Shown here piece by piece: positions 2,420 to 44,475 of a stretch of 64,000 nt of DNA. Both the position numbers and the translations under genes were made by a program. The DNA is from a virus: the IMG/VR virus record IMGVR_UViG_3300044811_000050; one strand, written 5' to 3'. The notes under the pieces are model-generated. The model was not told the DNA's origin. It worked only from the letters and a program-made list of their open reading frames with translations, and did no database searches. The number at the start of each line of letters is the position of its first letter. Within the stretch, counting starts at the first letter, position 1.

Positions 2420-3139
2420 ATGACCGCCACCCGCCTGAAGCTGACCCGCATCGCCGAGACCAAGCTGACCATGGACGGCGACGACTTCATGCCGTCGGTT
2501 CAGGGCTGGATGCGGGTGGATGACCAGGAGGCTGAAGACGCGGACCTGCTGGCCGAGTTCGCCGGCCGATCTTGCTACCAGTCGTTCGGCCGGCCCAACC
2601 CGGCCACCGCCGAAACTTGGACCTACCTGGCGCACATCCAGGAGGTCGAGCATTACTCGGTGCTCGCGCACGCCTCGGTGACCTACTACGTCGAAGGCGT
2701 GTCTCGCTCGCTGACTCACGAACTGATCAGGCATCGGTGGCCGGCGTTCAGCCAGCTGTCTCAGCGCTACGTGAAGCTGGTCGCCGACCTGGACTACGTG
2801 GTGCCGCCGCTGTTCCGGGGCAACGGGGTGGCCGAGGGCATGGTCGCCAAGGCCGCCCAGGACGCGCTGAACCACTACAACAACCTGCTCGGCGTGCTCG
2901 CCTCGGAGTTTCCCGACGCCACGTCCAAGCAGCTGCGCGAGGCCGCCCGGTGCGTGCTGCCCAATATGACCGAGACCCGCATCGTGGTGAGCTGCAACCT
3001 CAGGGGATGGCGGGACCTGCTGGCCCAGCGGCTGCCGAAGACGGCCGACGCGGAGATCCGGGAGCTGGCCGAGGCCCTGCTGGTCGACCTGAAGGACTAC
3101 GCGCCGAGCACCTTCCAGGACATCGAGGTGCTGACGTGA
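2420..3139 (+). CDS. thyX: FAD-dependent thymidylate synthase ThyX
   Basis: SRSLTHELIRHRWPAFSQLSQRY (RHRx7S motif), REAARCVLPN, A-DAEIRELA. Confidence 0.95.
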   Translation: MTATRLKLTRIAETKLTMDGDDFMPSVQGWMRVDDQEAEDADLLAEFAGRSCYQSFGRPNPATAETWTYLAHIQEVEHYSVLAHASVTYYVEGVSRSLTHELIRHRWPAFSQLSQRYVKLVADLDYVVPPLFRGNGVAEGMVAKAAQDALNHYNNLLGVLASEFPDATSKQLREAARCVLPNMTETRIVVSCNLRGWRDLLAQRLPKTADAEIRELAEALLVDLKDYAPSTFQDIEVLT

Positions 3140-8083: not shown

Positions 8084-10892
8084 ATGAACGCCCCCCAGCC
8101 CGCCCACCTCACCTACTTCACCGCGACGCTCGACCAGCCCACCAAGCTGGCCAGCCAGTACCGGGCCAACGAGCGCGCGATCCGCCAGCTGCGCCGCAAC
8201 CTCGCGCATGCCCGCAACGCATCCACCGAGAAGGCTCTTCAGCGCCGCCTGGACGACCGCTACAAGGCCGAGGGCTCGGTGCTGGTCTTCGGCACCGAGA
8301 TGGGCAAGTACCTGGTCGGCGCCCTGGTGCAGGAGCGCAACCTGCTGGATCGCCTGGCCGTGGACCCGGACCGTCCCGAGCTGCGCTCCAGCTTGCACCA
8401 CGCCCGCGACCGCATCCGCATCTCGACCGTGGGGCGGTGACCCGGTGACCAAGGTCCGCTACGTCGACCTGGCCGGCAAGGAGGCCGTGGGCATCTTCTG
8501 GTGCCCCGGTCCCGGGCCGCGCACCCTCTGGGTGTTGCCCCGTGCCGGCGCCCGCTCGATCGACGCGGTGGTGGTGGCGTTGCCCAGCATGTTGGAGCCC
8601 CGCTACCGCCAGCGCCGCTACTACCCGACCAGCCCCGTGTGGTTCGATCAGCAGTACCACGCCGATCCCATCGCCGGGGAGTACTGGACGCCCGTGGTGA
8701 GCCGCCACCAGGCCCAGATCCGCGCCCAGGAGGCCCGACACGCCGTGGCGCTGTCCGCTAAGGACCTGGCCACTCTGGCCGACCAGGAAGGCGCTGAGCG
8801 GGCCGCGCGGCTGTCCTGGGGCGAGCGCTACACCCAGCAGCCCTACCGCACCCCGGACGGGCCGGTCTGGCTGCACCGCAAGGGCCAGCGCTGCCGCTGG
8901 CTCGATGCCAACGGCTACACCGTGGCCGAGTGCTGGAACGTCGCCCCGGCTATTGCCTACGCGCACGCGCAGGACTGGCGCAACGAACTATCTGATCAAC
9001 TGGGCGTCTCGCCCCGAGAGGAGCTGGCCAATCATGGCTGAGCAACGTGGCTGGTGGCGGTTGGATATCACCGGCGCCCGAGAACTGTCCGAGGCCGACC
9101 GCGAGCACATCGGTGAGCTGATCGCCGACGGGTTCACCGAGGGCGAGATCGTGGCGGACGAGCCGCAGGAGGGCGAGCCCAAGCTCCGCAAGGTGCACGT
9201 CCCCGGGCCGGACGTCTGCACGTTGCCGCCCCCGGTGCGGACACACAACTTTCAACACGCCACCTGCGCGCTGGAGAGCTGTGGCCATCAGTACATCTTG
9301 ATCAGCAACCCCCCGGACGCAGGTGGCACGTACTGGACGAGCCGGGTCGAGTGGGAACAGATGATTGCCCGGACGAGTCGGCCCCACAAGGAGCCGTCCT
9401 ACGAGCGGCAGCGATACATCCCGAAGGAATGGCGATGAGCAGCCTGCTGCAAGACGAGACCTGGACCACGCGCGCCGGCGCAAAGATCAAATTGGAGGAG
9501 ATGACCGAGGACCACCGCCGGCACGTGCTGGCTTACGTGCGTCGTCGCGCGGGTGCGCTCAAGAGCAACTACGACGCCGCGCTGCTGCGTTCGGTGCTCA
9601 CGCCCAAGCTGGTCCCCGATGTGATCGCCAACTACAACGACATGGACATCGAGGTCATGCGGGCACCCGTGGTCCATGACGACGTCGAGTGGATGATCGA
9701 TCAGCAGCTCAACACGCCGGCCGCCGAGTGGGTCGAGACCACCCCGCTGGTGCGTCGGCTGCGGGTGCTGGTCGGGGAGAAGGCCTGACCGTGCCCGAGT
9801 TCAACGCCGCCTCCGTTCAGCGCCGACTGGACCGCGAGCAAGTCACCCCCACCTGCCCCCGCTGCAAGGGCCCGGCCCAGGTGATCGACACCTGGTTGCC
9901 GACCGCCGCGTTCCGGCTCGGGCCTCAGACCTCGGCGATGCGTCGTCCGGCCGTTCTGGTCGAGTGTGTGGACCAGGAGGACTGCCGGTGGGCCAACGAG
10001 GTGCTCGACCTGTTGGACCTCGCCAGGCACGGCCGTAAGACCGCGTTCATGCCAGCACCAGACCTCACGACGCAGGTAGCGACCGTGCGGGAGTTCGGCC
10101 AAGAGAGGGGTTTAGATCATGCCTGAGACCACCAAGCTGTCTCCCACCCAACACGACGCGATCATGAAGTCGCCGGTCAACCGCGACGGCCAAGTGATCA
10201 CCACCGATCGCACCCTCGGGGTGCTGGTACGCGAAGGCCTGGTGACTCAGCCGCGCTACAGCTACAGCAACTTGTTCCGCTCGCGTCGGGCCACCGGCGT
10301 GCTTACCCCTGCCGGGCAGCGGTACCTCGCCAGCCACACCGAAGGGAAGGATCTCGATGCCTGAGATCACCGAGCGGATCACCTTCCGCCCCGGCCACAA
10401 GACGAAGACCATGCACATCGAAGTTGAGGGCTGCATCGTCAACATCACCGTGGGATTGCGGGACACCTACGGCCGCCGGGTTACTCGGGTGGACGTCAGC
10501 CCTGACGACGAGTCTCGGGGCGGCGACGGTATGGGCAACATCTGGCGCCAGGAGCCCGGCGACGCCCGGATCATCTGCGTCAGCGACGCGCGGAAGGACG
10601 ACGAGGGATGATCCTGACCCAGGGCATCGCCGCGATCGAAGGCATCCCGTGGAAGACCATCGTGGTGGTCTTGACGCTGACCGCCATGGCCCTGGCGATC
10701 GTCGACACGGTGATCCGTGCCTGCCAGGCCCGCGACCGGAACAAATGGCTGGAGCTGTCCTTCGGCCTGACCAAGGACATGCACGACATGCAGGGCGGGA
10801 TCCGCGAGGCGGTGGACTCGCTCAACGAGGCGGTCCTGAGCAGCGTCCAGTTCAACAACTACCCGAACAGGCGAACTGAAGGCGCCAGCTAG
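8084..10892 (+). CDS. eight early hypothetical genes (8084-8440, 8445-9041, 9034-9438, 9435-9788, 9791-10126, 10119-10364, 10357-10611, 10608-10892)
   Basis: tightly packed, SD-led, translationally coupled ORFs. Confidence 0.65.
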
Positions 10893-10940
10893 CGGGAGGC
10901 CTGGTCCGTTTGAAGCGGTCGGCTCCGTGGTAGCCAAGCT

Positions 10941-11323
10941 CGGAGCCGGGGCGCGCCCCATTCTTTGGCTGGGGAGCGGAAAGAATGGTGCAGGTCGCGC
11001 CCCGGCTCCGTCCTTCTGACCAGGGATGTTATAGAGCGGGCCGGTGTCTGGGCCAGGTCAGAATGCGCTTTGTGTGTCGAAATATGCCCGTTAGCGAACA
11101 CTCGGTCGGGGCGGCACCCACAAGGAGCTGCCCGCCGTGAGGAAGACCACCCGAATGGAGCCGTTTAGATGGAAGATGGAGCGGATTTGATCTGCCAAGA
11201 TCTTGGCGCGGGGAGGCACAGGCCAGGCACAGCGAGTTGGCCTACGCTGCTCCGCTGGAGCCGGGCTGGCGCCCCAATCTTCGCTGGGGAGCGGAAAGGT
11301 TGGCGTGGCTGCCGCCCGGCTCC
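10941..11323. ncRNA. non-coding region with two related long hairpins (10941-11010, 11257-11323)
   Basis: 15-bp and 10-bp perfect outer stems, covarying inner stems, identical apical GCTGGGGAGCG. Confidence 0.5.
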
Positions 11324-11420
11324 GCGCAGCTTCCATGGGAACCGTTCTACAGGCATGAATTTAGGGCAGGCATCTCCCCTGGGTGGTAGCCCCCGGGGTG
11401 GAAACTCCAGCTAGCATGTA

Positions 11421-12506: not shown

Positions 12507-13847
12507 TCACGGGGCGACTTCCGAAGCGGGCCCGGTGTAGCCGGGCTTCGAGTTGTCGCTCATGCCCAGCATGTGCGGCACGTTGATCAGCTTGCAGTTG
12601 CTGATCGTGCCGCCGGTGGAGCCGTTATCGGCGCCGACCGCGTGGTCCAGACCGTCGCCGCCGGTGCCCTCGAACGTCGTGTCTTTGATCGTCCAGTTCT
12701 GCACGTCGTCGAACCAGACCGCCTGCGCGGCAACCCTGGTCTTGCAGTAGCACTTGCTGATCGTGATGTTGGTGGTGTGACCGGTGTGGTCACCATCCCC
12801 GGCGGACGAGTTCGGTCCTTCCGAGATGAGGGCCATGTTGTCGATGTTCTCCATCGAGCAGTTCTCGATCAAAATGTCGTGGGTGCGCGGGTCGCCCGCG
12901 TCCGTGGAGTAGTTCTGCATGGCGTCCGCGTGCGCGCCGGTGCTGTCATCGGTGTTCTTGAACGTGCAATGCCGGAAGGTCAGGAATGAGCCCCAGAACC
13001 GGCAGCAGTCACCGTCACCACCGGTAGGCCCGTCGATGACCACATTCTCGATCAGCATGTTGGTGCCCGTCACGGAGAGACCGGGCGCCGGGGGAGCCAC
13101 GATGTTGATGCTGTGGACCTCGATCCAGTCGCCGGTCAACTCCAGGCCGCCGATGGTGGAGTTACCGTCGCCCACGATCTTGATGGGGTTGCCGGACGCG
13201 CCGCTCCGGCTCATGGTGAGCGGGGTGGCTCCCAGGTTGCCCGATAGGAAGATCACGGAACCAGCATTGGCGGCGTTGAGCGCGGTCTGGGCCGCGCTCG
13301 CGGAAGTGGCCGTGACCGTGACCCCGGTCGGGGCCGGCGCCGGACGGACCGCGCCGGGGGAGTAGTCGCCACCGCCGCCAGCCGGTGGTCCACCGGGGGT
13401 GGTGCCGGGACTGCCGGGGTCACCGACCGGGGGAGCCGGCGCGATGTAGGGCAGGCCCGCCTCGGCTTTGCCGGACGGCTCGGACTCCACGCCGCCGACC
13501 AGAGCCGTCACCCAGTAGTGGTAGGTGCGCAGCTCGGCCGGGGCACGCGTCGTGGCGGTAGTGGTCAGCGCGGTAGCACCGACGACGCCAGTCAGAGCTT
13601 GATCTTCGTAGAGCTTGTAGGACGTGGCGCCCGGGAACCTGTCCCAGGTCAGCGCGATCGAGTTGTCGCTGTTGACCACGGCCTGCATGTGCTTCGGCCC
13701 GTTGGTGATCACTACGCCGTTCACGTCGTGCCAGGCGGTGCCATCGGAGATCAGCAGTAGCCGGCCCAGGTCAAGGTCGACGTAGGCGACCCCGTTCTGG
13801 GGACTCGGCCGCTGGGCGGTGGTGCCGCTGGGAAAGATCACGACCAT
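12507..13847 (-). CDS. FN3 + right-handed beta-helix (pectate-lyase-like) depolymerase
   Basis: N-terminal SGTTAQRP module, FN3-like domain, Pro/Gly linker, beta-helix repeats with HADAMQ and ILIENC. Confidence 0.75.
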   Translation of the reverse strand: MVVIFPSGTTAQRPSPQNGVAYVDLDLGRLLLISDGTAWHDVNGVVITNGPKHMQAVVNSDNSIALTWDRFPGATSYKLYEDQALTGVVGATALTTTATTRAPAELRTYHYWVTALVGGVESEPSGKAEAGLPYIAPAPPVGDPGSPGTTPGGPPAGGGGDYSPGAVRPAPAPTGVTVTATSASAAQTALNAANAGSVIFLSGNLGATPLTMSRSGASGNPIKIVGDGNSTIGGLELTGDWIEVHSINIVAPPAPGLSVTGTNMLIENVVIDGPTGGDGDCCRFWGSFLTFRHCTFKNTDDSTGAHADAMQNYSTDAGDPRTHDILIENCSMENIDNMALISEGPNSSAGDGDHTGHTTNITISKCYCKTRVAAQAVWFDDVQNWTIKDTTFEGTGGDGLDHAVGADNGSTGGTISNCKLINVPHMLGMSDNSKPGYTGPASEVAP

Positions 13848-13856
13848 GATTCGTCC

Positions 13857-15362
13857 TTAGGAATGGCTGCACAGCAGGCTCTTCAGCTCGACGGAGAAAT
13901 AGTCGGTGGCGGACACCCCGGAGGTGTAGCCGGACGCGGCCTGGGCGTAGCACCCGACCTTGAAATAGCTCCCTGTGCCGTACCCGGGGTGCCCGGAGTA
14001 CTTCTGCACCCCGTTGATCTTGACGGTGACCGTGCCGCTGACCACCTTGACCTCCCAGGCGATGTCGGTGCCCTTGACGTAGCCGGTGAGCAGCGGGGAG
14101 GACTGCTTGACGCCCTGGATCGACAGCATGACGTTGCCGCCCTCCACCCGGAGCTGGAGATTGTCATCGGACGCGTTGTGGATCTGGGCGATGCAGACCT
14201 CGTCCTTGGTGGAGGTGCCGTGGGTGACCCGGGTGACCCCGGACAGCAGATGGGTCCCGGAGGCGGCATCCCAGGCCGCCTTGGTGGTCCCGTCGGAGTT
14301 GTACTCGCGCAATTCGCTACGCGGGTAGTGGGTGTTGGTTGAGGTCTTCCCGCCGTCGCAGTAGACCCCGAGTTTCACCGCCGTGTTGGCCTGCGCCCGC
14401 TCGAAGTAGAACGCCCTCGTGTAGCCGCCGACCAGCTGGGCCACGGTGATGTCGACGTGGTTGGAGCCCTCCGCGTCGCCGGAGTGGAACCCGATGCCCT
14501 CGTTCCACCAGCCGCCGTTGGCCGCGCCCTTGCCGTTGATGTTCAGCACCTCGGCCGGGGTATTCCCGGTGGGCGGTGGCGGTGGGCCGCCACCCGGGGG
14601 AGTGACGACGCCACCCGGCGAGACGTAAGGCAAGATCGCTTCAGCCTTGTTGGTGGGGTCACTCTCGACGCCCGCGACCAGAGCCGTCACCCAGTAGTGG
14701 TACGTCCGCATGGTGCTCGGGGTCCGCGTGGTGGTGGTGACGGTCAGCGCGTCGGCCCCGGCCACCCCGGTGAGGCTCTGATCTTCGTAGAGCTTGTAGG
14801 ACGCGGCACCGCTCTTGGCATCCCAGCTCAATGTGATCGAGTTGTCCGAGTTCACCACGGCCCGCATGTTGCGCGCGGCGTTGGTGACCGGTTGGCCCAT
14901 CGCGTCGCGCCAGGTGGCGCCATCGGCGATGATCAGCACCTTGCCGAGATCCGTGTCTACGTAGGCCGAGCCCACGTCGGGGGTGGGCCGTTGCGCGGTG
15001 GTGCCACTAGGAATGATCACGATGGTGGCCGACGGGTTGCTGGGACCCCCGTCGTTCCCCCCTCCTGGGGTGGTGGAGTCTGTGCCGACGATTTCCAGCA
15101 GGTTGTTCTCGTGCAGCTGAGCCGTGGCCTGGGTACGGAGCCCCGAGGGAAGATCTACATTCACCAGCACCCAGGGCTTGGCCAGGACTCCGGTGAGCTG
15201 GGAAGCGTCGGCGACCCAGATCCGGCATCGGCGCGGCAGCCGGTTGTTGTCGACCCAATCGTCCGCGTCCGAGAGCCGGAGGCTGATGATCGGGATGGTG
15301 TAGCTGAAATCGGTGCGCGCGGTGGCGAACATGGCTTGCTTGTCCGCGTCGCTCATCGCCAT
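13857..15362 (-). CDS. FN3 + polysaccharide lyase family 7 (alginate-lyase-like) protein
   Basis: the three PL7 signature motifs: RSELRE, QIH, YFKVGCYAQ. Confidence 0.85.
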   Translation of the reverse strand: MAMSDADKQAMFATARTDFSYTIPIISLRLSDADDWVDNNRLPRRCRIWVADASQLTGVLAKPWVLVNVDLPSGLRTQATAQLHENNLLEIVGTDSTTPGGGNDGGPSNPSATIVIIPSGTTAQRPTPDVGSAYVDTDLGKVLIIADGATWRDAMGQPVTNAARNMRAVVNSDNSITLSWDAKSGAASYKLYEDQSLTGVAGADALTVTTTTRTPSTMRTYHYWVTALVAGVESDPTNKAEAILPYVSPGGVVTPPGGGPPPPPTGNTPAEVLNINGKGAANGGWWNEGIGFHSGDAEGSNHVDITVAQLVGGYTRAFYFERAQANTAVKLGVYCDGGKTSTNTHYPRSELREYNSDGTTKAAWDAASGTHLLSGVTRVTHGTSTKDEVCIAQIHNASDDNLQLRVEGGNVMLSIQGVKQSSPLLTGYVKGTDIAWEVKVVSGTVTVKINGVQKYSGHPGYGTGSYFKVGCYAQAASGYTSGVSATDYFSVELKSLLCSHS

Positions 15363-20676: not shown

Positions 20677-21588
20677 TTAGGCCCCGGCGAACGCCGCCCA
20701 GAGCCGCGTCACGGCCCGGCCCAGAACGGTAGCCACTACCCCCGGTCCGATGAACGCGCCGATCACCGAGAGCGCCGCGCAGACCCCGAGGGTCGGCGCG
20801 ATGATGACCTTCTCCACCCCGTGGTTGACCTTGAAACGCATCGGCTCCCAGAGCCCCATCCGGGGGTAGCGCCGGCCGGCCCAGGCCTTCGGGAACCACG
20901 GGATCTCCGCGCCGCCGACCGTGTTGCTGTCCGGCCAGCGGATCACCGGCGCCCACGGGCTCACCCCGAAGTCGGTGCACCCGTCCCCGCCGATGTGGCT
21001 GATCATGCCCAGCGCCATCGTCTCGGCGAGCAGCAGCGGTGCACCGTCGGTGCCCAGCAGCGGGTGCAGCGCCGGCCACATCCCGGGCCGCCAGGCACCG
21101 AGCGCGGCGAAGATCCCGAACCAGATGCACCCGGTGATCAGGGCGCACCACACCGAGTGGGCGAAGCCCCGGTGCACCCGGAAGCTGGGTCCAAACTTCC
21201 GGGTGGAGTCCCGCTTGTCCGCCGGGGTGGCCCACCGGTCATAGATGCACTCGGACAGCCGGCACATGAACCGGTGCACCTGCCAGCTCGGGAAGTAGTA
21301 GCGCTTGACCATCGGGCGGCCCTTGGTGTCCTTGAACGGGCCCCAGCCCTTGCCGGTCGGCTTGGACAGCCGGACCTCGCCGTCCTTGGTGCGCCGCGTC
21401 TCGATGCGGTACGGGATCCACTTGAGCATCTTGGTGATCGTCGCGCCCTCGTGGTCGATGTCGGGCCAGTCGCAGGTGTGCGCGCCCAGCGCACCCAGCG
21501 CCAGGCAGCCGATCGGGGGCACGCCCGAGGCCGCCGCCCACGTGGTCACCACCGCGAATCCGGACAGCTCGTGGTTGGGACCGAGCAC
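20677..21588 (-). CDS. membrane metal-dependent hydrolase (YdjM/DUF457-like)
   Basis: PDIDH, HRGFAHS, SHIGGDGCT.FG motifs with TM helices. Confidence 0.8.
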   Translation of the reverse strand: MLGPNHELSGFAVVTTWAAASGVPPIGCLALGALGAHTCDWPDIDHEGATITKMLKWIPYRIETRRTKDGEVRLSKPTGKGWGPFKDTKGRPMVKRYYFPSWQVHRFMCRLSECIYDRWATPADKRDSTRKFGPSFRVHRGFAHSVWCALITGCIWFGIFAALGAWRPGMWPALHPLLGTDGAPLLLAETMALGMISHIGGDGCTDFGVSPWAPVIRWPDSNTVGGAEIPWFPKAWAGRRYPRMGLWEPMRFKVNHGVEKVIIAPTLGVCAALSVIGAFIGPGVVATVLGRAVTRLWAAFAGA

Positions 21589-21622
21589 GGCTACCGCCCC
21601 CTTCCGGTCACAGCGAGTGACT

Positions 21623-21736
21623 CTGGCGCCAGCTGGCGCCGGTCATGCACCCCGGGCGAGGGTGTCTCCCTACGGGGTTTTGACGATCATGAAAATAGGC
21701 CCGCTGGCGCCAGTAAGTGGCGCCACCTGGCGCCAG
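21623..21736. repeat. five TGGCGCC(A) palindromes downstream of traB (candidate clt or operator)
   Basis: copies at 21623, 21633, 21704, 21717, 21727. Confidence 0.6.
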
Positions 21737-21754
21737 CGAGTCGATCACTCTGTG

Positions 21755-23974
21755 TTACCGGGGGCCGGAGCCCGGGGTGGCCTTCGCCGGCCGGGCGTAG
21801 AAGCCCGTGTCCGGCTTGATGACCTTGCCGTCGCGGATCTGGACCCGCAGCGCCTCGGAGTACCAGCTCGGGCTGCGCTTCAGCGTCTCCCGCATCTGGG
21901 CGATGGTGATGCCTCCGGGCGGGGCCGCGTCCAGCATCCTGTTGAGCAACCGGATGGCGTCCGCCGGGCTGATGCTCTGGTCGTCGAACAGGGCGTAGTA
22001 GGCGATGCGTTCCGCCTCCTGCTGCACGGCCTCGGCGTCGTTGCGCGGGGCAACGAGCTGATCGAGCTGACTGGGGTCCATAGATGCGGTGTCCTCTCTC
22101 CAAGGGGTGAACCCGGGTGCGGGTGCACCCGGGAACGGTTCATCGGAGTCCGCATGTGCACGCGGACTCAGGTCAGGCAGGTGCACCCGCTCGTGCACCG
22201 GTGCACCGTTCGTGCCGGGTGCACCGAATCCATTGCGGTGCACCGGGTGCCCGTTGATGGGTGCACCGGCGGGATCGGGTGCACTCGGGTGCATCGGCGG
22301 TGCAGGCTCGGTCTCCACCCGCTCACCGGTGATGTCATCGGCGTTGTCGCCCACCCATTCGTCCGGCGGGATGGCGTCGCTCACCGTCCAGATCCGCCGC
22401 TCGCGGTAGTAGCACTCGCCGGTCTCCGCATCCACCGAGCCGGCGATGGCCGCCCGCACCGAGATCTGATCCAGCGTGGAGCCGTTCGGCCGCTTCGTCG
22501 GGTCGGAGCCGACCTCCAGCACCAACCGGTAGACGTCGGACGGGGTGACGTAGCGGACCCGCCCGGACAGCTCGGAGATCAGCCCGCCCTCGGAGGCGTA
22601 GAACGTGCCGACGAACTGCTTGCCGATCGGGATGGAGGTGGCATCGAAGATGTCGGTGCTCTTGGGGATGACCGCCCGCTGGGCCGCCGCGTCCTCGACG
22701 CTGAAGCAGAACCGGCGTCGTACGTTCTTCATCAACTGGGTGCTCCCGAGCGCTTCCATGGTCGGGTACTGGGTGGCCAGCAGGAACACCACGCCGGTCG
22801 CCCGGCCCATCCGGGCCACGCTGGAGGCCAGCTCGTTGATGTCGAACTGACTCAGCCCGAACACCTCGGCCGCCTCGTCCACGAACAGCACCAAGATCGG
22901 GTGCAGCGCGTCGGGCTTCCACACGTCCCAACCGCGCTCGGCGGAGTACTTGGATCGCGCCTTCAGGACATCGTGGATCGCCTGCATCATGAAGACCGAC
23001 TGATCCACGTCGTCGATCATCCAGTCGAACAGCGACGCCCACGGGCGCAGCGCCATGCCACCCTTCGCGTCGATGCCCCAGCGGACCATGTCCGGGCAGC
23101 GCGCGCTCTCGGCCAGCACCAGGTGGTACAGGCCGCTCTTCCCCGAGCCGGGTGACCCGGCGGCCAAGGTGTGCATGCCACCGAAGCCACGCTCGAACCA
23201 GCACACCTCGTGGCGGCTGCCGTCCTCCTTCAGCCCGACGAACATCATGTCGGTGAAGGAGTTCATGGTCGGCTGGTCGAACGAGACGACCTGTTCCAAG
23301 ATCGGGCTCTTGGTGTTCTCGGTGACCCAGCACGCGTTGGGGTCACTCATCCCCGGGCCGGCCGGGATCTCCTCGAACCGGATCCGCATCGGCGGGATGT
23401 CCAGCGCGCTTTCCAGCCCCCGGGCGGCGGCCTTGAACTGCGCCAGGGTGAAATCGCCCTTGGACCACCAGAACCGCCACCGCCGGCCGGTGTCGGTCTT
23501 CTTCTCCGGGCCCCGGCGGACCTGCGGCATGTGCAGCTTCTCGGCCAGGATCGGCCACCGCTCCATGTCCCTTTCGATCTTTACCCGGTGCCGGTTGTAC
23601 TCGTCGAACCACCACAGTCCACCGAGGACGGCCAGACACACGCCCAGCGCGGAGAACACCCAGACCAGGGGGATCACCTGCATGCGCACCATCAGGACGA
23701 AGGCGCCCCAGGTGGCCAGCACGCCCCACATGAAGTTGCACATCCCCCGGTCGCGCTTGGGGTTCCACTTCGCGTAGATGGTCAGACCACCGACCCCGCA
23801 GAACGCCAGCACCGCCAGGAAGACCTGCTGGGGGGTGCCCAGAAAGCTGCACCCGGCGCAAATGCAGGCAAACAAGGTCGCGTAGATGGGCGTCATGCCC
23901 ACCCGGCGACGCCACCACCAGGGTGCTTGAGGCACCCCGGTGGCGGCAGCCGGTGTTGACGTTCTGCGGTTCAT
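21755..23974 (-). CDS. traB: FtsK/SpoIIIE-family conjugative DNA translocase (TraB-like)
   Basis: N-terminal TM helices, Walker A GSPGSGKS, Walker B LFVDEAAE, ATQYP, Pro-rich linker, C-terminal wHTH-like domain. Confidence 0.85.
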   Translation of the reverse strand: MNRRTSTPAAATGVPQAPWWWRRRVGMTPIYATLFACICAGCSFLGTPQQVFLAVLAFCGVGGLTIYAKWNPKRDRGMCNFMWGVLATWGAFVLMVRMQVIPLVWVFSALGVCLAVLGGLWWFDEYNRHRVKIERDMERWPILAEKLHMPQVRRGPEKKTDTGRRWRFWWSKGDFTLAQFKAAARGLESALDIPPMRIRFEEIPAGPGMSDPNACWVTENTKSPILEQVVSFDQPTMNSFTDMMFVGLKEDGSRHEVCWFERGFGGMHTLAAGSPGSGKSGLYHLVLAESARCPDMVRWGIDAKGGMALRPWASLFDWMIDDVDQSVFMMQAIHDVLKARSKYSAERGWDVWKPDALHPILVLFVDEAAEVFGLSQFDINELASSVARMGRATGVVFLLATQYPTMEALGSTQLMKNVRRRFCFSVEDAAAQRAVIPKSTDIFDATSIPIGKQFVGTFYASEGGLISELSGRVRYVTPSDVYRLVLEVGSDPTKRPNGSTLDQISVRAAIAGSVDAETGECYYRERRIWTVSDAIPPDEWVGDNADDITGERVETEPAPPMHPSAPDPAGAPINGHPVHRNGFGAPGTNGAPVHERVHLPDLSPRAHADSDEPFPGAPAPGFTPWREDTASMDPSQLDQLVAPRNDAEAVQQEAERIAYYALFDDQSISPADAIRLLNRMLDAAPPGGITIAQMRETLKRSPSWYSEALRVQIRDGKVIKPDTGFYARPAKATPGSGPR
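22121..22305. repeat. cluster of GTGCAC/GGTGCACC palindromes inside the traB linker
   Basis: 9 exact GTGCAC in 22123-22284 plus variants, in two reading frames. Confidence 0.8.
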
Positions 23975-23978
23975 GGGC

Positions 23979-24836
23979 CTAGGCCGTCCCTACGTCCGTC
24001 CAGATCTTCTCGTCCGGCTTGTACTGCTCGTTCTGCTGGTACGCGATGCGGTCCGCGTAGATCGTCTTGAAGGCGGTCATCGCGGCGGTGAACTGGTGCG
24101 CGAGGCTGGCCATCTCATCGGCGGCTTGGTTGATGGGCGCGGCCACCGCCGGGTTGATCCGCCGGCTCACCAGCTGGTTGGCGAACTCGTGGATGGCCGA
24201 CGCGCCGGAGTTCATCGCCGACTCCATCCCGTTCAGGTGCTGCTCCAGATCGGCCACCGTCTCGGGCGTGTGCGATGCCCAGCCGCCGATGGAGCTGGCT
24301 ACAGCTGCTCCCGAACCCCCTCCGCCCCTTCCGTTCCCTCGTGCTCCTGCCATTGGTTTCCCCTTCCGTTGGTGCTGACCGCCGGCTTGGCCGGTGGGCT
24401 TCGGGCCCGGCATGGGTGCCGGGCTGCCGTTCGTGGGGGCCGGTGAAGGCCCCGGGTTGGGTCGGTTGGGCTGGTTGGCCGGTCGGCCCGCCGGGGCGGT
24501 GCCCTTCTGCTGGGCGTGCCGGAAGTTGTGCTCTTCGGCGCGCCGGTAGAGCACGTCGCGCCCGCACTCCTTGCAGATGTAGGAACCGCCGAGGTTGTCG
24601 GTGAACCGCCGGGTCTGGGTGCGGGCCCAGCGCCAGGCCGTCTTGGTCCGGTGCTTCATCCGCCGGACCCGTCGCACCCCGTTGCGGGTCAGCGCGAACC
24701 AGCGCTTGGTGGTGCCCCAGATCTTCTTGGACTTCCCCGGCACCTTGACCGGCTTGCGTTTGGCCGTCGTCCGCGCCGTCTGATCACTCGGCGACGGTGG
24801 CTTGCGCGCCGCCGGCCTCGGTTGTGCCGTCTTCAT
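23979..24836 (-). CDS. plasmid transfer accessory protein (TraA-like), with possible in-frame internal start at 24353
   Basis: position directly upstream of traB; basic N-terminus, CxxC..H..H finger, helical C-terminal domain with its own SD. Confidence 0.5.
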   Translation of the reverse strand: MKTAQPRPAARKPPSPSDQTARTTAKRKPVKVPGKSKKIWGTTKRWFALTRNGVRRVRRMKHRTKTAWRWARTQTRRFTDNLGGSYICKECGRDVLYRRAEEHNFRHAQQKGTAPAGRPANQPNRPNPGPSPAPTNGSPAPMPGPKPTGQAGGQHQRKGKPMAGARGNGRGGGGSGAAVASSIGGWASHTPETVADLEQHLNGMESAMNSGASAIHEFANQLVSRRINPAVAAPINQAADEMASLAHQFTAAMTAFKTIYADRIAYQQNEQYKPDEKIWTDVGTA

Positions 24837-25707
24837 GTGCCCCCTCTCGCTCGCTCAGGTACCGCGTCCGGAATCCATCCATCCGGCCGGACACCTTGCT
24901 GGTCCCCGGGCGAACCTTCGCCCGGTCATCCACCGCCTTGGGCGCGATGTCGAAGATCGAGCCCCCTGCGGCCAACGTTTCATCGGCCAGCTCCCGAAAC
25001 GCCCGCTCGGCGCGCTCCTTGAGGGACCTGGGCGCGTCCAGGTCGTCCGGGGCGGCTTCGCCCACCGGAACGGGCCCTGGTGCCTCCACGGCCTGCTGAG
25101 CGGCCTTCCTGGGCCGTTCCTGGGTCATCGGCTTGCCCTTGGTCTGCCCACCGAGCCCGTCCACCACGAGGGTCAGCACGGTGCGCTGTTGCACCAGCGC
25201 CTCGGCGGCCAGGAACACCAACGCCACCGGGATCGAATGCTTGAAGATCTCGTCGGGCGCCTTGCTGGTCCAGGCCACCCAGGTGTTCATCACGTAAGTG
25301 ATCAATAGAGCGGTCCATCGGGTGAACCGCACCCAGCCGCCGGCCTTCTCGCCGTAGCGGTTGGCGATCTGCTCACCGCGCAGCAGCACCAACATCAGGC
25401 CCATCACCATCGGTTCGACCAGCCAGGCGGTGATCCAAGTCAGGCTCCAGGCCGGCGCCGTACCGGCTACAAAGGACTGGACGTTAACGATCGTGAACGC
25501 CAGCCCGCAGGACAGGAAGGTCCAGCCCCACCGGTCCAGCACGTCGCGGGTGCGCTCGATGCCCAGCGCGGCCACGTTCGGGTCAGAGCGGTACGCGCGC
25601 AGTCGGGCCGCCGACTGGGCGTCGGTGACCAACCGCAGCGCGGCCACGTCCAGCTCGGCCGCCGGCTTGGCGGCCCACCTCTTCAGCGTCCCCGACCAGC
25701 TCTTCAC
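24784..25707 (-). CDS. SpdB/DUF2637-like multi-pass membrane spread protein
   Basis: four TM segments followed by a low-complexity linker and helical C-terminus; in tra operon. Confidence 0.55.
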   Translation of the reverse strand: MKSWSGTLKRWAAKPAAELDVAALRLVTDAQSAARLRAYRSDPNVAALGIERTRDVLDRWGWTFLSCGLAFTIVNVQSFVAGTAPAWSLTWITAWLVEPMVMGLMLVLLRGEQIANRYGEKAGGWVRFTRWTALLITYVMNTWVAWTSKAPDEIFKHSIPVALVFLAAEALVQQRTVLTLVVDGLGGQTKGKPMTQERPRKAAQQAVEAPGPVPVGEAAPDDLDAPRSLKERAERAFRELADETLAAGGSIFDIAPKAVDDRAKVRPGTSKVSGRMDGFRTRYLSEREGAHEDGTTEAGGAQATVAE

Positions 25708-26000
25708 GTCGTGCCCTCTCGTCGATGCCAGGCCGCCCATCGGCTCTGGAGGGTGGCGTCAGAGATCCCCGCCCCGTCCGCGATCTCCGCCCATGAGTGG
25801 GTGGTGCGGACCCAGGCCAGTCCGGCGTCCCGACACCACAGGGACAGCTCCGCGATCTCGGCCAGCTCTCGGACAACGATCACGTCCGAGGGGGTTTTCG
25901 CAGCTAGCGCGGCCTGGATCTGGCCGCGTAGGTTAGTGAGCGCGTCGAGGGCCGGCCGGACATTCGGTTGGTCTACCAATTTTCGGCCCCTCCCCGCCAT
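25704..26000 (-). CDS. small HTH regulator heading the tra operon
   Basis: SWAEIADGAGISDATLQSRW. Confidence 0.65.
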   Translation of the reverse strand: MAGRGRKLVDQPNVRPALDALTNLRGQIQAALAAKTPSDVIVVRELAEIAELSLWCRDAGLAWVRTTHSWAEIADGAGISDATLQSRWAAWHRREGTT

Positions 26001-26011
26001 TTCCGATAGTT

Positions 26012-26045
26012 CGGTACAGTTAAACTGATCATACCGGATTGTCAA
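26012..26045 (-). promoter_or_regulatory. tra-operon promoter/operator region
   Basis: TTGACA on the minus strand at 26045-26040; imperfect palindrome CGGTA-CAGTTAAACTG-ATCA-TACCG. Confidence 0.5.
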
Positions 26046-26067: not shown

Positions 26068-27779
26068 ATGGACCACAGAGACAAGGCTGCCTGGGATCAC
26101 GTTTCGAGACTCGTTCTGCGCACCCTGCGACCCTTCGCTGACTTCTTCGCCATGTTTGTTTCCTGCGTGGCCGGCGGGGGGTTACTGACCGTGTGGGTCA
26201 TGGTGGACGCCCATCACCTTGTGTGGCAGGTCGCCGCGATACTCTCGCTGCCCTGCTTCTTCTTCGCGTGGCTCTCCGAGGCGCTCCGCCGGAGGTACCT
26301 GCGCCTAATCCAGATCGCCCCCTATCCGCGTAGCCGGGAGCCGGTCTGAGGTTGAACGCTCCGCTCGGCTGTGCCACCGTTAGTTCCGGGTCCAGGGTCA
26401 GCGCCCTCCAGTCTTGTGCCGCCGCCGGTTCTTCCCCCCTCAAGGTCGGTGCGGCATAAGAGCCCATCGCCTCGTCGCGGTCGTCAGGGTCGGAGCCTTC
26501 CGACCGCGACGAGGCCCCTTCTTGGAAGGACCCCGCCGATGACCTCCCCGAACTCGGCCGCCGCCAGCGTCGCCGCGTTGATCTCCAACTACTGCGGCCG
26601 TGATCCTGGCTCCGGTCAACTGCGTGCCTGTGCCCACGACCATTCCGGCGACGGCCAGGCGCTCACCGACTCGATTCGCCGCGAGCTGCTGATCGAGCTG
26701 CAAGAGGGCCTCAACCCGGGCACCGGGGACGACATCATCATCGCCGAGCGAGTCCGCGACGAGCTGGCCAAGCTGCCAGCCCCCGAGGTGTCGGCCCGGT
26801 GACTCAGCAGCCAGATCGCCACGACCCCTACCGGTCCTGCCAGCTCGATGTGGAGGGCCCGGACGCCGGCAAGCTGACCGAGCAGGCCATCCGGCAGGCG
26901 GCGGTGTTCCTGGTGGAGTCCGAGGCCGACCTCTACGCCGCGCACGTCGGCATGGCCCACCCGGTGGCCCGCAGCAAGTACCGCCCGCACCTGGGTGTGG
27001 AAGGGGCGATCACTCGGTGGCGGGCGACGATCACGGTCCGGCTGCTGCCGCACATCGTGGAGGAGCGCCGCAAGACCGCCAAGCGGGACAAGCCGCCCGA
27101 CAAGACGCGGAGCCGGGGACTGCACGTGGTGCCCTTCGACGCGTCATAGCCCCAACTCGTGATTGATCAATTTCGCATCCCACCGGGTGGTCTCCTCGTT
27201 TGACAGGCCATGATCGGACTGCCCGAGTCGGCCTGGACCGTTGCCGACGAGACCTTCGACTACCTGGCCAGCGACTCGACCGACGGCGATGAGCTGTATC
27301 AGGCCCTGCTCGCGGCGATGCCGCACATCCGCGCCGATGAGCTGGCCGACGCCCTGGCGGAGCTGACCCGTTGTCGGGCCCGCGTGGGCAGGTGCCTGCG
27401 CGGCGGATACGACCTGGCCATCCGGATCCTCGTCACCCGAAAGAGTGCCCTGGAAAACTCCGCGCGTCCTCCTTCTTGATCACTCGTTGACCATCGCATG
27501 AGCATCCAGGGCTGCGCCTGGCCATGCTGTCCCGCTCGATTCCCCCGGTCGAGCGGTCCCACCACCTTCGGCTGGCGGCTCTTCACCTACGGCGACGGGG
27601 CGGTGGTCGCGTTGTGCCCGTTCCACTCCCCCAACGGCCACTCACCGTTGATCATCAGCACGAACGGCAGGGACCGGCCGACGCGGATGGGGTGTTCCTG
27701 CAAAGACTGGGTCAGCGACCCCATCGAGAGCTTCATCGGCGGTATCCGGGAATGGCAGACCCACGTCGGGGATAGATAG
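26068..27779 (+). CDS. five hypothetical genes (26068-26349 membrane, 26539-26802, 26799-27149, 27210-27479, 27498-27779)
   Basis: SD-led ORFs resuming + strand transcription. Confidence 0.55.
26469..26515. terminator. perfect 15-bp intergenic hairpin
   Basis: GCCTCGTCGCGGTCG/CGACCGCGACGAGGC. Confidence 0.5.
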
Positions 27780-39997: not shown

Positions 39998-41056
39998 ATG
40001 GGATTGGGTAACAGGAATGCTCGGCACCACGACACCGAGGCCGTGCGTCGGCACGCCGTGAATAGCGAGGATTACGCCGATTTCCGGGCCGATCAGCGGG
40101 TCATGACGGCGGACGGCATCCTCGGCACGGTGACCGCCGTGGAGGACGGCCCCTACCCCGGCACCGAGGGGTATCTGGTCACCCTGGACCACGGCTTGGG
40201 TGGCGGGCTGTACCGCACTTCCGACCTGCGTGACGCCAGCACCACCACGGCCAGCACCGAGCACCAGGCTTCGGAGGATTACCCCGAACTCGGCGACATC
40301 CTGACCCGTCGGCCCGACATCGCTCAGGGGTAGGCGCCATGCACACCACCTGGAAAGACGGCGTCTGGGTCGACATCGGGTGCGGCGTGGGGATCACCGA
40401 GTACTTCGAGGACGGTTCCGATCACGCCGCCGGCCTACTGGAGCGCCATGAGTGTGTCGATGGGACCTACATCAGCTCGATCCCCTTCCGGCGGAAGGGT
40501 CAGGCCGCGCACGGCCCGCGCTGGCTGGTCAAGCAGCGGGACCCGTGGACGCTGTACCCCTCGATCCTGTGCCCGCGCTGCGGGCTGATCGGCTACATCC
40601 AAGAGGGCAAATGGATGTCTGCCGATGGCTCTGATGTCTGATCAGCTGAACACGAACCAGGCGCCATTCCCCGAGGAGCTGGCCAGCCTGGTCGACAGGT
40701 GTGCCTACCGGCCTGGCTGGACGGTCGTGTTGAGCGACTTCGACCGAGGCCAGGGCAGCTCCGGGCTCACCCTGGTGATCACCACGAGCACGGTTAACAC
40801 CTACCGCCCGGACGAGCCGATCAGGGTCAACCACCTGTTCCCGGTCCCACCGGCCGCCTACGACGAGCGCTCCTGGCGGCGGTGGCTGTTCGAGCAGTTC
40901 CGCCTGGTCGAGTCGCACGAGTGCGCGGAGTTCTTCCAGATCGACGGCGAGCGTCCTTTCGCTCCGAGCCACGGGCCGGGGAATGATCCCTATCTGATCC
41001 GTGAGCTGGGGACCGATCTCGATCGCAGGACCACTTTCCGGGGCGAGGTGCGATGA
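39998..41056 (+). CDS. three small genes (39998-40333; 40339-40641 DUF6527-like; 40625-41056)
   Basis: SD-led; second has W..TLYPSILC..CG..GYI..GKW. Confidence 0.6.
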
Positions 41057-44000
41057 CCTTCGATGCCTGGGCCGCGCTGGACGACGAGGCCCCCGAGCAG
41101 GGATCCACGTCACCCACGGCCCCCTCCGCGTGCTCGTACTGCGGCGGGGCCGAGTTCGACGCGCCCACCGACAACGGCAAGGTGTCCCGGGCCACCTGCA
41201 CGGCGTGCCAGGGCACCATGGTCAGCCACGACGGGGTCTACTGGCAGCCGGACCTGATCGGCCAGCCGGACAACCACCCGAGCACCCAGGCCGACCCGCG
41301 CTCCGGCGGGGTGGGCGGCATCGGGGACGTCCCGGTGGTGCGCCGCGAGGAGGACCTCAACAGCCGCACCGCCGGCTTCGAGAACCGCATCACCTTCCGC
41401 CAGTACCTGCCCGGGGAAGACGAGCACGCCGACCTGGACAGCCACGACCCCGGCTGGGCGCATGGCCTGCTGGAGGCCCACGGCAACGCGGCCGAGCCGA
41501 TCGGGCGGATGGAGTTCTCCGCCGGCCCGGACACCGTCAAGATCCACGAGACCCGGGTGCACCAGGACCACCGCCGCCAAGGCGTCGCCACCGCGTTGAA
41601 TGACCGGCTGACCCAGCTGTTCCCGCACCACGAGATCGACCGGGGCGCCGCCACCGAGGACGGCGAGAAGTTCCGTCAGAGCCTGGCCGGGGTGGACTGG
41701 TGCCGGCACCGACGCGGCGAGCATTGCTGGCTGCCCCGCAACGACTCGCAGAGCGGCGGCTTCGCGCTCTACACCCCGCAGGACCGAGGAGTCTGCCCAT
41801 GGACCACGGCCAGCATGCAGCAGATCAACTGCCCGATGTCTGAGCCCGGACCGATGGCCGGCATGGAGCGCGCGGGCGTCCTGACCGACCCGGAGATGCG
41901 TTTCCACGTGCTCGCGGCGTGGCGCGACGTGCGGGCCAAGGCCAAGCGGATCCGCGCCGAGGGCGGCGTGTCCATCGTCTCGGTGCTCGCCGACGGGATC
42001 ACCGGGCACGTCAACGGGGACACCGGCGTCTACGAGAGCCAGATCAACTACGTGCCCGGCTCGTTCAAGATCGGGCATTGGCAATGCGGCTGCGCCTGGG
42101 CCAGCTACGCCTGGGGCCGCAGCCCCGCCTTCAAGAGGTTCGAGGGCCGGATGTGCTCGCACGCGCTGGCACTCCAGTACGAGGCGCAGAGCCGGGGCAT
42201 GTTCGGCAAGGAGGTCGCCGAGGACACCACCCGGCCCGGCTGGATGCGGGACAAGGTCCGGGTCCGCCACGACCGGGTGACCCGTGATCACGACGTGCGC
42301 GCGGCCAGCCTCCAATCCGGGTTGGACCCGGACGGGGTGTATCCAACGGGCCACGGCCTGGACTTGGAGGGTGCGCCGATCCACGCGTTCGCCAGCGAGG
42401 CCTTCGCCGCGCGCCGCGACCCGGCCGACGCCATGCGGGTGTTCCTGGCCGCCGGCATCGAACACACCGACGCGCGCCGCATGCTGGACGCCATCGCGGT
42501 CGGCGATCAGAGCCTCCACATGGAGGTTCAGCGCACCTTCGACAAGGTGCACGACGACTACCGGGAGCGGCACCAGGACGACCACGAGCTGGCCGAGACC
42601 TACGAGCCGCTGAAGAAGTCGGACCTGCCCGAGGAGCACCACGCCGGCTGGCGGTTCAACTCCAACGCCGACGCGGCGCCGAAGAATCAGTTCCACGAGC
42701 TGTTCTCCACCATGCCGGGCGGCTGGGACGGGCCGACCCACGACACCGACGCCCACCACGCGCCGGTCGCGCTGACCAAGTACCGGCACCCGTCCGGCAT
42801 CGAGCCGCTGCACCTGGACGAGCACGGCCAGGCCTGGGCCCGGCACTTCACCTCCCGGCCGCGCCAGGACGGCGCGCACAGCCCGGTCTTCGATCATTGG
42901 TCCGGGCCACACTCGGCGATGGATGTGATCCACAGCCACCCGACGTTCAGCCAGCGCGACGGGAAGGTCAACTGGCGTTCCCACGCCGAGCGGATGCAGC
43001 TGTCCAGCACGCTGCCCGAGGAGTCCTACCAGGACGTCCACCAGCGGAAGATGCGCAAGCTGCGCGACGCCGGCTGGGGTGTGGTCGGAGCCAAGGGGGA
43101 CGACGAGGCACCCAGCGAGCCGACCCACGCGGGCGTGGTGCTCAAGGCCGCCGACACCGGCCGGATCCTGATGATCCAACGCAGCCATCAGGACGAGACC
43201 GACCCGGCCGCCGGCACCTGGGAGTTCCCGGGAGGCGGGCGGGAGGACGGTGACCATACCTCGCTGCACTCCGGGATCCGGGAATTTGAGGAGGAAGTCG
43301 GCCAGGAATTCCCGACCGGCGGGCACGTCAGCCACGTCTGGCAGTCCCCGAACGGGGTGTACCAAGGCCACGTGGTGGTGGTGCCCAGCGAGAGCGCGAT
43401 CGACTTCAGCAACGGCCGCCGCACCACCAACCCGGACGACCCGGACGGCGACGACCACGAGCAGTCCGCCTGGTGGGATCCCGACCACGCCCGGAAGAAC
43501 CCGGCCTTGCGCCCGGAGTGCAAGGCGAGCCCCTGGGACAAGATCAAGACAGCCAGCCTGGGTACCGAGGCGGGCATCTTCACCCGCAAGCCGGTCGGGC
43601 CGGACACCCGGCCGCCGGTGGACCCCGCCGACGAGAAGCCGATGCGGGCCTGCGACGGGTGCAAGGGCTGCGCGGTATGTGGCGACAAGTCGGTGGCTGT
43701 GGACACCCTGTGGGACCACGGGTTCTGCCCCCAGCACCTGCACGAGCGCCAGAGCGGGCAGGACCCGATCCGTGACGGCGGTCGGCTGAAGCCCGTATTG
43801 GCCGGCGCCCACCACGTCGGGCGGAGGCACGTCACCGGCGAGTATGCCTCCGGTGACTACCTGGAAGACATCGGGGTGGACCCGCGCCCGAATCCCCCGC
43901 CGAAGCGCCCTGAGCCCGACCAGGCCGCCAATCCCGGCTCCACGGGCTGGGCGAGCGGCCAGGACCCGCCGGAGTGGGACGGGGCCGCTCAGAACCCCGG

Positions 44001-44475
44001 AACCATGTCCCTGACGTCCTGGTCGACCCTCCATGACGAGCCAGAGCCCGCGCTGCCGTCCACCGACGGGGCGGAGGAGACCGAGGGTGAGCGCTACCGG
44101 GCCCAGATGCGCCCGGAGATCGACCCCACCGAAGACTCAGCGCCCAGCGACGGGCGGACCGCCAGCGTCACCGACATCGTCGAACGCTTCCAGGCCACCG
44201 CCGGAGCGCGAGCACTCCAGCAGCAGAGAGGATCAGAGGCCATGGACATCGCCAGCGCCGCGCGAGCGCACCTGGAGGACGGCGGCATCCGCCGGACCGC
44301 GCTGAAGGAGTTCAGCTCGGCCGAGCAGGCCGCGCTCATCACCGAGGGTGCCGGGGGCACGCCCGCCCGCAACTTCGACGATCTTAAGATCGAGGGCACC
44401 CACTACGCCGACCTGGCGGCGGCTCTGGCCAGCGAGCAGAGCCTGACCGAGGCCGCCGACGAGCTGTTCAGCTAA
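41053..44475 (+). CDS. 1140-aa polyprotein: Zn ribbon, GNAT, SWIM finger, NUDIX hydrolase
   Basis: VHQDHRRQGVATAL (GNAT motif A); CGC..x..CSH (SWIM); WEFPGGGREDGD......IREFEEEVG (Nudix box). Confidence 0.8.
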   Translation: MTFDAWAALDDEAPEQGSTSPTAPSACSYCGGAEFDAPTDNGKVSRATCTACQGTMVSHDGVYWQPDLIGQPDNHPSTQADPRSGGVGGIGDVPVVRREEDLNSRTAGFENRITFRQYLPGEDEHADLDSHDPGWAHGLLEAHGNAAEPIGRMEFSAGPDTVKIHETRVHQDHRRQGVATALNDRLTQLFPHHEIDRGAATEDGEKFRQSLAGVDWCRHRRGEHCWLPRNDSQSGGFALYTPQDRGVCPWTTASMQQINCPMSEPGPMAGMERAGVLTDPEMRFHVLAAWRDVRAKAKRIRAEGGVSIVSVLADGITGHVNGDTGVYESQINYVPGSFKIGHWQCGCAWASYAWGRSPAFKRFEGRMCSHALALQYEAQSRGMFGKEVAEDTTRPGWMRDKVRVRHDRVTRDHDVRAASLQSGLDPDGVYPTGHGLDLEGAPIHAFASEAFAARRDPADAMRVFLAAGIEHTDARRMLDAIAVGDQSLHMEVQRTFDKVHDDYRERHQDDHELAETYEPLKKSDLPEEHHAGWRFNSNADAAPKNQFHELFSTMPGGWDGPTHDTDAHHAPVALTKYRHPSGIEPLHLDEHGQAWARHFTSRPRQDGAHSPVFDHWSGPHSAMDVIHSHPTFSQRDGKVNWRSHAERMQLSSTLPEESYQDVHQRKMRKLRDAGWGVVGAKGDDEAPSEPTHAGVVLKAADTGRILMIQRSHQDETDPAAGTWEFPGGGREDGDHTSLHSGIREFEEEVGQEFPTGGHVSHVWQSPNGVYQGHVVVVPSESAIDFSNGRRTTNPDDPDGDDHEQSAWWDPDHARKNPALRPECKASPWDKIKTASLGTEAGIFTRKPVGPDTRPPVDPADEKPMRACDGCKGCAVCGDKSVAVDTLWDHGFCPQHLHERQSGQDPIRDGGRLKPVLAGAHHVGRRHVTGEYASGDYLEDIGVDPRPNPPPKRPEPDQAANPGSTGWASGQDPPEWDGAAQNPGTMSLTSWSTLHDEPEPALPSTDGAEETEGERYRAQMRPEIDPTEDSAPSDGRTASVTDIVERFQATAGARALQQQRGSEAMDIASAARAHLEDGGIRRTALKEFSSAEQAALITEGAGGTPARNFDDLKIEGTHYADLAAALASEQSLTEAADELFS

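Follow-up and report, generated by a model that had tools for sequence, protein, structure and literature searches.

A TraB-like DNA translocase module with a candidate clt-like repeat site in a lineage of large phages

The closest described systems are the conjugative plasmids of Streptomyces, in which a TraB-type pump recognizes short repeats in its own DNA. In pSVH1, TraB recognizes 8-bp repeats by means of helix alpha-3 of its winged helix; the clt site of pWTY27 comprises the last 16 bp of tra and the 159 bp downstream of it, and its 7-bp repeats are distributed over two protected blocks (PMC3583192). A related arrangement is found in a tailed phage, pZL12/phiZL12 (GQ919031; Zhong et al. 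2010 J Bacteriol 192:3747), which is cited as a Streptomyces plasmid-phage (PMC3583192, PMC5431353) and whose transfer, according to PMC3583192, requires tra and two neighbouring genes. SpdB2 homologues on actinophages and the idea of hyphal spread precede this work (Thoma et al. 2015, PMC4447253); virion-free spread of a phage through hyphae is a published idea, by these authors and from pZL12, and not a new one. Here a comparable module is described in IMG/VR virus record IMGVR_UViG_3300044811_000050, analysed as a stretch of 64 kb with a guanine-plus-cytosine (GC) content of ~68%, hereafter the window. Gene calls by third-position GC revealed five co-directional minus-strand genes between 20677 and 26000, among them a gene for a TraB-like double-stranded DNA (dsDNA) translocase, followed past its stop codon by a candidate clt-like repeat array. 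As far as sequence can tell, two aspects are new: a divergent TraB clade fixed in a large-phage lineage, with no integrase, ParAB or rep among the ~30 open reading frames (ORFs) scanned in the window, and a locus-specific repeat site whose sequence changes, from relative to relative, along with the pump's recognition helix.

The 739-residue TraB-like protein contains a Walker A motif, GSPGSGKSG, and a Walker B motif, VDEAAE, both invariant in its family. Its best curated match is the NCBIfam family plasmid_TraB (NF041214; E 6e-22, 77.9 bits), with EccC (32 bits) and FtsK (18 bits) following at lower scores, and of 14 family members 13 matched plasmid_TraB, the strongest at E 3e-34. In the Pfam scan FtsK_SpoIIIE matched weakly, just below threshold, and the FtsK gamma-domain gave no match. 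The protein and a canonical TraB align collinearly, starting in the pre-motor region and continuing as far as the winged helix, with ~24% identity over the motor. An AlphaFold model based on 14 homologues, with a predicted local distance difference test (pLDDT) score of 66.5, displayed four long hydrophobic N-terminal helices at residues 19-146 (pLDDT ~80-89), conserved in the family, then a beta-rich region, a RecA-like FtsK-type motor at residues ~260-490, a disordered linker at residues 542-637 and a C-terminal winged helix at residues ~670-727 in the order helix-helix-helix-strand-strand. Foldseek matched the motor to the conjugation coupling protein TcpA and to FtsK (E ~1e-8), and a PDB profile search with the protein returned FtsK, TcpA and EccC. 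Folded alone, the last 110 residues reached a pLDDT of 85.7, and the leading PDB matches of the winged-helix model were mostly winged helices (SelB, MarR, ArsR and Rpa2), at 1.4-2.5 A over ~60 residues and with weak E values of 0.03-0.2. The membrane helices, ATPase and winged helix-turn-helix that the original prediction had ascribed to an FtsK-type TraB were all recovered, by motifs, family match and structure model. TraB is therefore taken, on profile and model evidence, as the nearest named family of this protein, which has the predicted architecture of TraB but is not an equivalog. A public gene call places its start 26 codons later, giving 713 residues. One relative, P0034, extends to 1158 residues and carries the homing-endonuclease/intein Pfam domains PF05204 and PF14528, which suggests an intein inside its pump gene.

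Full-length relatives of the pump share 31-57% identity with it and lie on contigs of 74-158 kb, falling into a closer clade A and a more distant clade B. In a tree of 40 ATPase sequences, built without EccC, the phage TraB-like family formed a single clade with a Shimodaira-Hasegawa-like approximate likelihood ratio test (SH-aLRT) value of 99. Canonical TraB, chromosomal FtsK and the FtsK-like proteins of the cultured Streptomyces phages Gilgamesh and LukeCage all fell outside this clade, and the deep nodes were weak. No relative of the family was found in the genomes of 185,579 species, one genome each, and it is for this reason not known as a prophage; a scan of metagenome contigs with the TraB alignment returned distant relatives only.

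Past the traB stop the window contains three CTGGCGCC/TGGCGCCA sites, a conserved core (CATGATC...GTAGGGAGACACC) and two more sites. The comparison set consisted of 12 independent phage loci from ENA, JGI, Logan and IMG/VR, or 13 with the window, and the same plan was observed in all 13: the ~150 bp past the stop hold two to four copies of a 7-8-mer, a conserved core and one to three more copies. The repeats themselves differ by locus, being CTGGCGCC, CTGGCGA, CTCCGGA(G), CTCCAG, CTCCCCA, CCAGAACC, CCAGCACC or TGGCCAG. When all 170-bp windows were ranked by exact 7-mer repeats, the post-traB stretch came within the top ~3.5% at 8 of 12 loci, and in L015, L016 and L050 every copy of the motif of the locus lies within it. 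The core motif was found nowhere else in the window and is not a reused promoter; a sigma-70 consensus scan at the core detected no promoter, and the array motif was absent from the two GntR-module intergenic regions inspected. RNAalifold found no consensus structure in the core between the arrays, where the two clades do not align, and a possible hairpin seen there by eye was dropped. With this layout the post-traB array resembles a clt site and is a candidate for one. Copies of CTGGCGCC were also seen at 10542/10544, 10881 and 11266, around a ~530-bp non-coding region (10893-11420); the window has 14 copies, of which 10 belong to two clusters, the post-traB stretch and 10542-11266, and the latter may offer the same protein a second binding locus.

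To follow covariation of the repeat class with helix 3 of the winged helix, the 13 loci were viewed on a tree made from the motor core only. The repeat class was found to track helix 3 rather than clade, twice across the two motor clades. A helix 3 of the form SW[YA]S[ED].L accompanies CTGGCG[CA] in the window, L001 and L050 of clade A and in L013 of clade B, and W[MV]H[AE]R accompanies CTCCGGA in L002 of clade A and L016 of clade B. Within a sister pair, L016 combines HER with CTCCGGA and L051 combines HEQ with CTCCAG.

A second repeat lies within the pump gene itself. GGTGCACC occurs 15 times in the 64 kb, with 2.8 expected, and ten of these copies are within 20974-22267, six of them in the traB linker. 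The nine GTGCAC sites of the linker are read in two codon phases; GGTGCA is present 13 times in the L050 linker, in all three phases, and 7 times in L001. The linker array is regarded as a DNA-level feature of one subclade. Four GGTGCACC sites were also observed inside the ydjM gene (20974-21280), in all three codon phases and with two on conserved V-H codons, and the ydjM gene of L001 likewise has four GTGCAC sites.

The partner of the pump is a 318-residue protein predicted to have four transmembrane helices (4-TM protein), which had no match in Pfam, PHROGs or NCBIfam. PF10935 (DUF2637) in particular gave no match for it or for 39 relatives, even at E 0.1. Profile-profile comparison by hhalign, on the other hand, linked it to the DUF2637 proteins of small Streptomyces conjugative plasmids with a probability of 96.5% (E 8e-10, 133 columns of the 4-TM core). 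The 4-TM family and DUF2637 match each other reciprocally by hidden Markov models, and a Kitasatospora plasmid protein bridges both; ESM Atlas neighbours agree with the DUF2637/transfer link, as leads only. The 4-TM protein is accordingly classified, at the level of profiles, as a remote member of the DUF2637 (SpdB-type) superfamily, as its original designation as SpdB-like had it, and the wider homology reading, a TraB-type membrane dsDNA translocase with an SpdB-type partner, holds. A profile search with the 4-TM protein yielded 596 cluster representatives, again without any PF10935 match. Its close relatives (40-52% identity) are found in chromosomes of Amycolatopsis, Lentzea, Pseudonocardia, Actinophytocola, Actinomadura, Streptosporangium and similar mycelial genera. 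An FtsK-superfamily ORF directly follows the 4-TM relative in 70 of 80 genomic loci, and Pfam FtsK_SpoIIIE was detected in five of eight such ORFs checked. In plasmids and chromosomes the relatives adjoin FtsK/TraB-type ATPases or type IV coupling proteins. On the Pseudonocardia plasmid pFRP1-2 (L005 8998-12116) the 4-TM family gene overlaps the start of a gene for a VirD4/TraG-type coupling protein, not a TraB-type pump, so the family partners with both kinds of DNA-transfer ATPase. An 18.8-kb plasmid-like contig from JGI (L010) encodes a relaxase, ParA, a divergent GntR regulator, a 4-TM family protein, SsgA and a 733-residue FtsK-like ATPase, and thereby brings relaxase-type and TraB-type transfer genes together on one contig.

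Two further proteins of the module were less readily assigned. The 285-residue protein encoded directly upstream of traB is basic at its N-terminus and combines a zinc-ribbon-like motif, CxxC...H...H, with a proline-rich linker and a conserved helical domain at the C-terminus; every phage locus tested has this domain immediately upstream of traB. It had been labelled TraA-like in the original prediction, a label that is weakly supported: its NCBIfam score for NF041213 (TraA) was 14.6 bits (E 0.025), where the cut-off is 80, and hhalign against TraA gave a probability of 13.7%. Similarity to TraA stayed below threshold by three routes, with three weak signals, and the protein is treated as a positional analogue of TraA only. 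The 98-residue product of the first gene showed sub-threshold helix-turn-helix matches at residues ~64-91, at one place in three orthologues. A C-terminal helix-turn-helix is therefore probable, which lends weak backing to the predicted helix-turn-helix regulator. The protein is conserved in clade A: tblastn detected orthologues in L001 and L012, and L002 and L049 carry one at the corresponding position. A TTG start for this gene at 26084 is probably an over-extension. At the other end of the module, the YdjM gene, whose product agrees with the membrane hydrolase foreseen, closes the conserved module in clade A and has orthologues in L001, L002, L049 and L050. Third-position GC and translations bear out the minus-strand five-gene operon, with the features listed in Table 1.

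Table 1. Positions of the module genes and repeat features in the window
Feature	Position	Strand	Description
Small first-gene protein	25704..26000	-	98 aa from ATG start
4-TM protein	24784..25740	-	318 aa, four hydrophobic helices
TraA-position protein	23979..24836	-	285 aa
TraB-like dsDNA translocase	21755..23974	-	739 aa
GTGCAC array in traB linker	22122..22284		nine sites, six as GGTGCACC
Candidate clt-like site	21589..21754		after traB stop
YdjM-family membrane-bound putative metal-dependent hydrolase	20677..21588	-	303 aa; Pfam YdjM E 1.8e-13

The module is carried by a 157.3-kb contig. Portal, major head protein and head protease genes were located downstream in the same window, as had been claimed for the contig, and the portal is ~40% identical to portals of cluster-C-type myoviruses of Gordonia, Rhodococcus and Mycobacterium. 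The lineage consists of large uncultured phages, presumably of filamentous soil actinomycetes. The clade of the window comprises contigs of ~150-157 kb, cluster-C-like and of myovirus type by portal and head-protein similarity. Gene order in clade A is small protein, 4-TM protein, ~240-300-residue protein, TraB-like protein and YdjM, and the flanking genes match as well, including an ArdC-like gene. This nearby gene, named in the original prediction, is sub-threshold in the window, but its orthologue in L001 carries ArdcN. In clade B the TraB-like gene retains the upstream protein with the same C-terminal domain, and in L051 and L052 a divergently transcribed GntR/UTRA regulator lies beside the module, an arrangement that corresponds to the TraR/KorA layout in Streptomyces plasmids. 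Over the module region GC content stays flat. The ORFs scanned in the window, most of the larger ones included, contained no integrase, ParAB or rep gene, in line with the reported absence of rep and integrase. Of the proposed phage or phage-plasmid, the phage genome stands and the plasmid state finds no support among these ORFs. The same window (2420-3139 and 41053-44475) encodes a ThyX thymidylate synthase (E 4e-44) and, among the structural genes, a 1140-residue GNAT/NUDIX protein. Two minus-strand genes at 12507-15362 encode proteins with beta-helix and alginate-lyase (PL7-like) domains, and because both have tail-protein-like N-termini they are probably depolymerases.

In comparison with the TraB/clt and Spd systems of Streptomyces plasmids (pSVH1, pSN22-type NF041214, pWTY27), the phage module shares an anchored FtsK-type pump with a winged-helix end, short repeats at or after the 3' end of the pump gene, and a DUF2637/SpdB-type 4-TM partner; a divergent GntR gene, as in the plasmids, is present in the more distant phage relatives. 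The module differs in the ~24% motor identity of its pump, whose score is far below the family cut-off and whose clade is separate, in a middle protein that is not detectably TraA, in the attached YdjM hydrolase and in its carrier, a phage of ~157 kb. pZL12 is similar in placing a GntR gene divergent from an operon of a membrane protein, a 766-residue protein and an FtsK-like Tra within a tailed-phage genome. It is, however, a 90-kb temperate plasmid-phage with ParAB and integrase, and its module proteins show only faint sequence similarity to those of the window. FtsK-like translocases are also encoded by ~100 cultured Streptomyces phages. Among large actinophages, the BE-cluster phages (LukeCage, Coruscant) and Gilgamesh resemble the carrier of the module in having a lone FtsK-type ATPase, but their proteins share at most 28% identity with the window pump over about one third of the protein and belong to different clades, and their annotations, by which this was judged with no profile search, list no DUF2637 partner or TraA-position protein beside the ATPase.

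Based on these observations, a mechanism can be proposed in which the winged helix would dock a hexameric pump on the post-traB array in phage DNA, as TraB does on clt, while the 4-TM partner would form a membrane or septal channel. The pump would then move double-stranded phage DNA across hyphal cross-walls into the adjoining compartments, or through fused walls into adjacent hyphae, and one infection could spread through the mycelium without virions. That the pump docks on the array and moves phage dsDNA across cross-walls or fused walls with the 4-TM partner is put forward tentatively, at somewhat below an even chance, the transfer being what we infer from the observed homology and cis-site pattern. 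For a large, apparently non-temperate myovirus, intramycelial spread, the role of Spd proteins, is no less fitting than mating-type conjugation. The fuller claim, that a large and apparently virulent actinomycete phage lineage passes replicating genomes between compartments via a TraB/DUF2637 pump and its own clt-like site, is more doubtful; under it, the helix 3/repeat specificity pair would diversify like the pairs of TraB and TraB recognition sequence (TRS) of plasmids. Several points weigh against transfer. The cut-off of NF041214 is 800 bits, which the 77.9 bits of the pump do not reach. Its family, while not grouped with chromosomal FtsK, which would have counted against the original prediction, is its own clade and is not nested within canonical TraB. 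The arrays are weak in L002 and L049, and the covariation comes from only 13 loci with motifs defined by eye, where joint inheritance of the adjacent winged helix and array could mimic it. The post-traB repeats could be an operator and the core a promoter of the next gene. Finally, a mycelial host is deduced only from where relatives of the 4-TM partner occur.

Other functions have to be weighed for the same genes. The pump might partition phage genomes into pre-spore compartments or across closing septa, much as FtsK/SpoIIIE handle chromosomes, with spores as the carrier state and no lateral spread. A membrane-anchored FtsK-type motor with a sequence-reading winged helix would suit such a task, SsgA-like sporulation genes are near the module in relatives (L051 and the plasmid-like L010), and the translocases of the ~100 Streptomyces phages are FtsK-like too; nevertheless, this delivery into spores is unlikely, since the partner and gene layout are those of transfer and spread modules rather than of chromosome segregation, the FtsK gamma-domain is not matched and, in the tree, chromosomal FtsK stands apart from the family. 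It is quite improbable that the module acts on host or competitor DNA instead, in the exclusion of superinfecting phages or plasmids or in disturbance of host septation, with the array as an operator bound by the winged helix or another module protein. The uniqueness of the core motif in the window, the consensus scan without a promoter and a repeat specificity that tracks helix 3 of TraB speak against an operator, even though the conserved core that the arrays enclose lies upstream of the next gene, traB-type genes of plasmids are toxic 'kil' functions under GntR control (PMC4447253), and clade-B loci have GntR regulators. Insertion of an independent actinomycete integrative and conjugative element (AICE) or plasmid into a phage, or a mis-assembly, might be suspected from genes that run opposite to their neighbours and have relatives in plasmids and AICEs. 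This is extremely improbable: the same flanking context recurs at 31-57% identity in independent ENA, JGI, Logan and IMG/VR assemblies, GC is uniform, no integrase or rep gene flanks the module, and the TraB family has no relative in the 185,579 species genomes. Both the chimera and the att-bounded AICE, which had been named as possible refutations, were ruled out by the synteny conserved in 12 independent phage contigs, and the module is regarded on that ground as an inherited part of the phage genome, neither an inserted AICE nor an assembly artefact.

Returning to transfer across cross-walls or fused walls, the likely docking site beside the pump gene makes the published idea of hyphal spread testable. 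The practical gain is a testable pair, a winged helix of ~60 residues and a repeat site of ~150 bp, with natural specificity variants across 13 phage genomes. Furthermore, the 4-TM proteins that accompany TraB-type pumps in Pseudonocardiales and Streptosporangiales are delineated as a large family without a Pfam match. Should the pump carry phage DNA through cross-walls, phages of filamentous bacteria would have a means of spreading besides lysis and re-adsorption, and the interpretation of plaques, burst sizes and multicellular defence in actinomycetes would change. Were a large virulent lineage indeed to pass its replicating genomes between compartments in this manner, it would represent a virion-independent infection route specific to multicellular bacteria.

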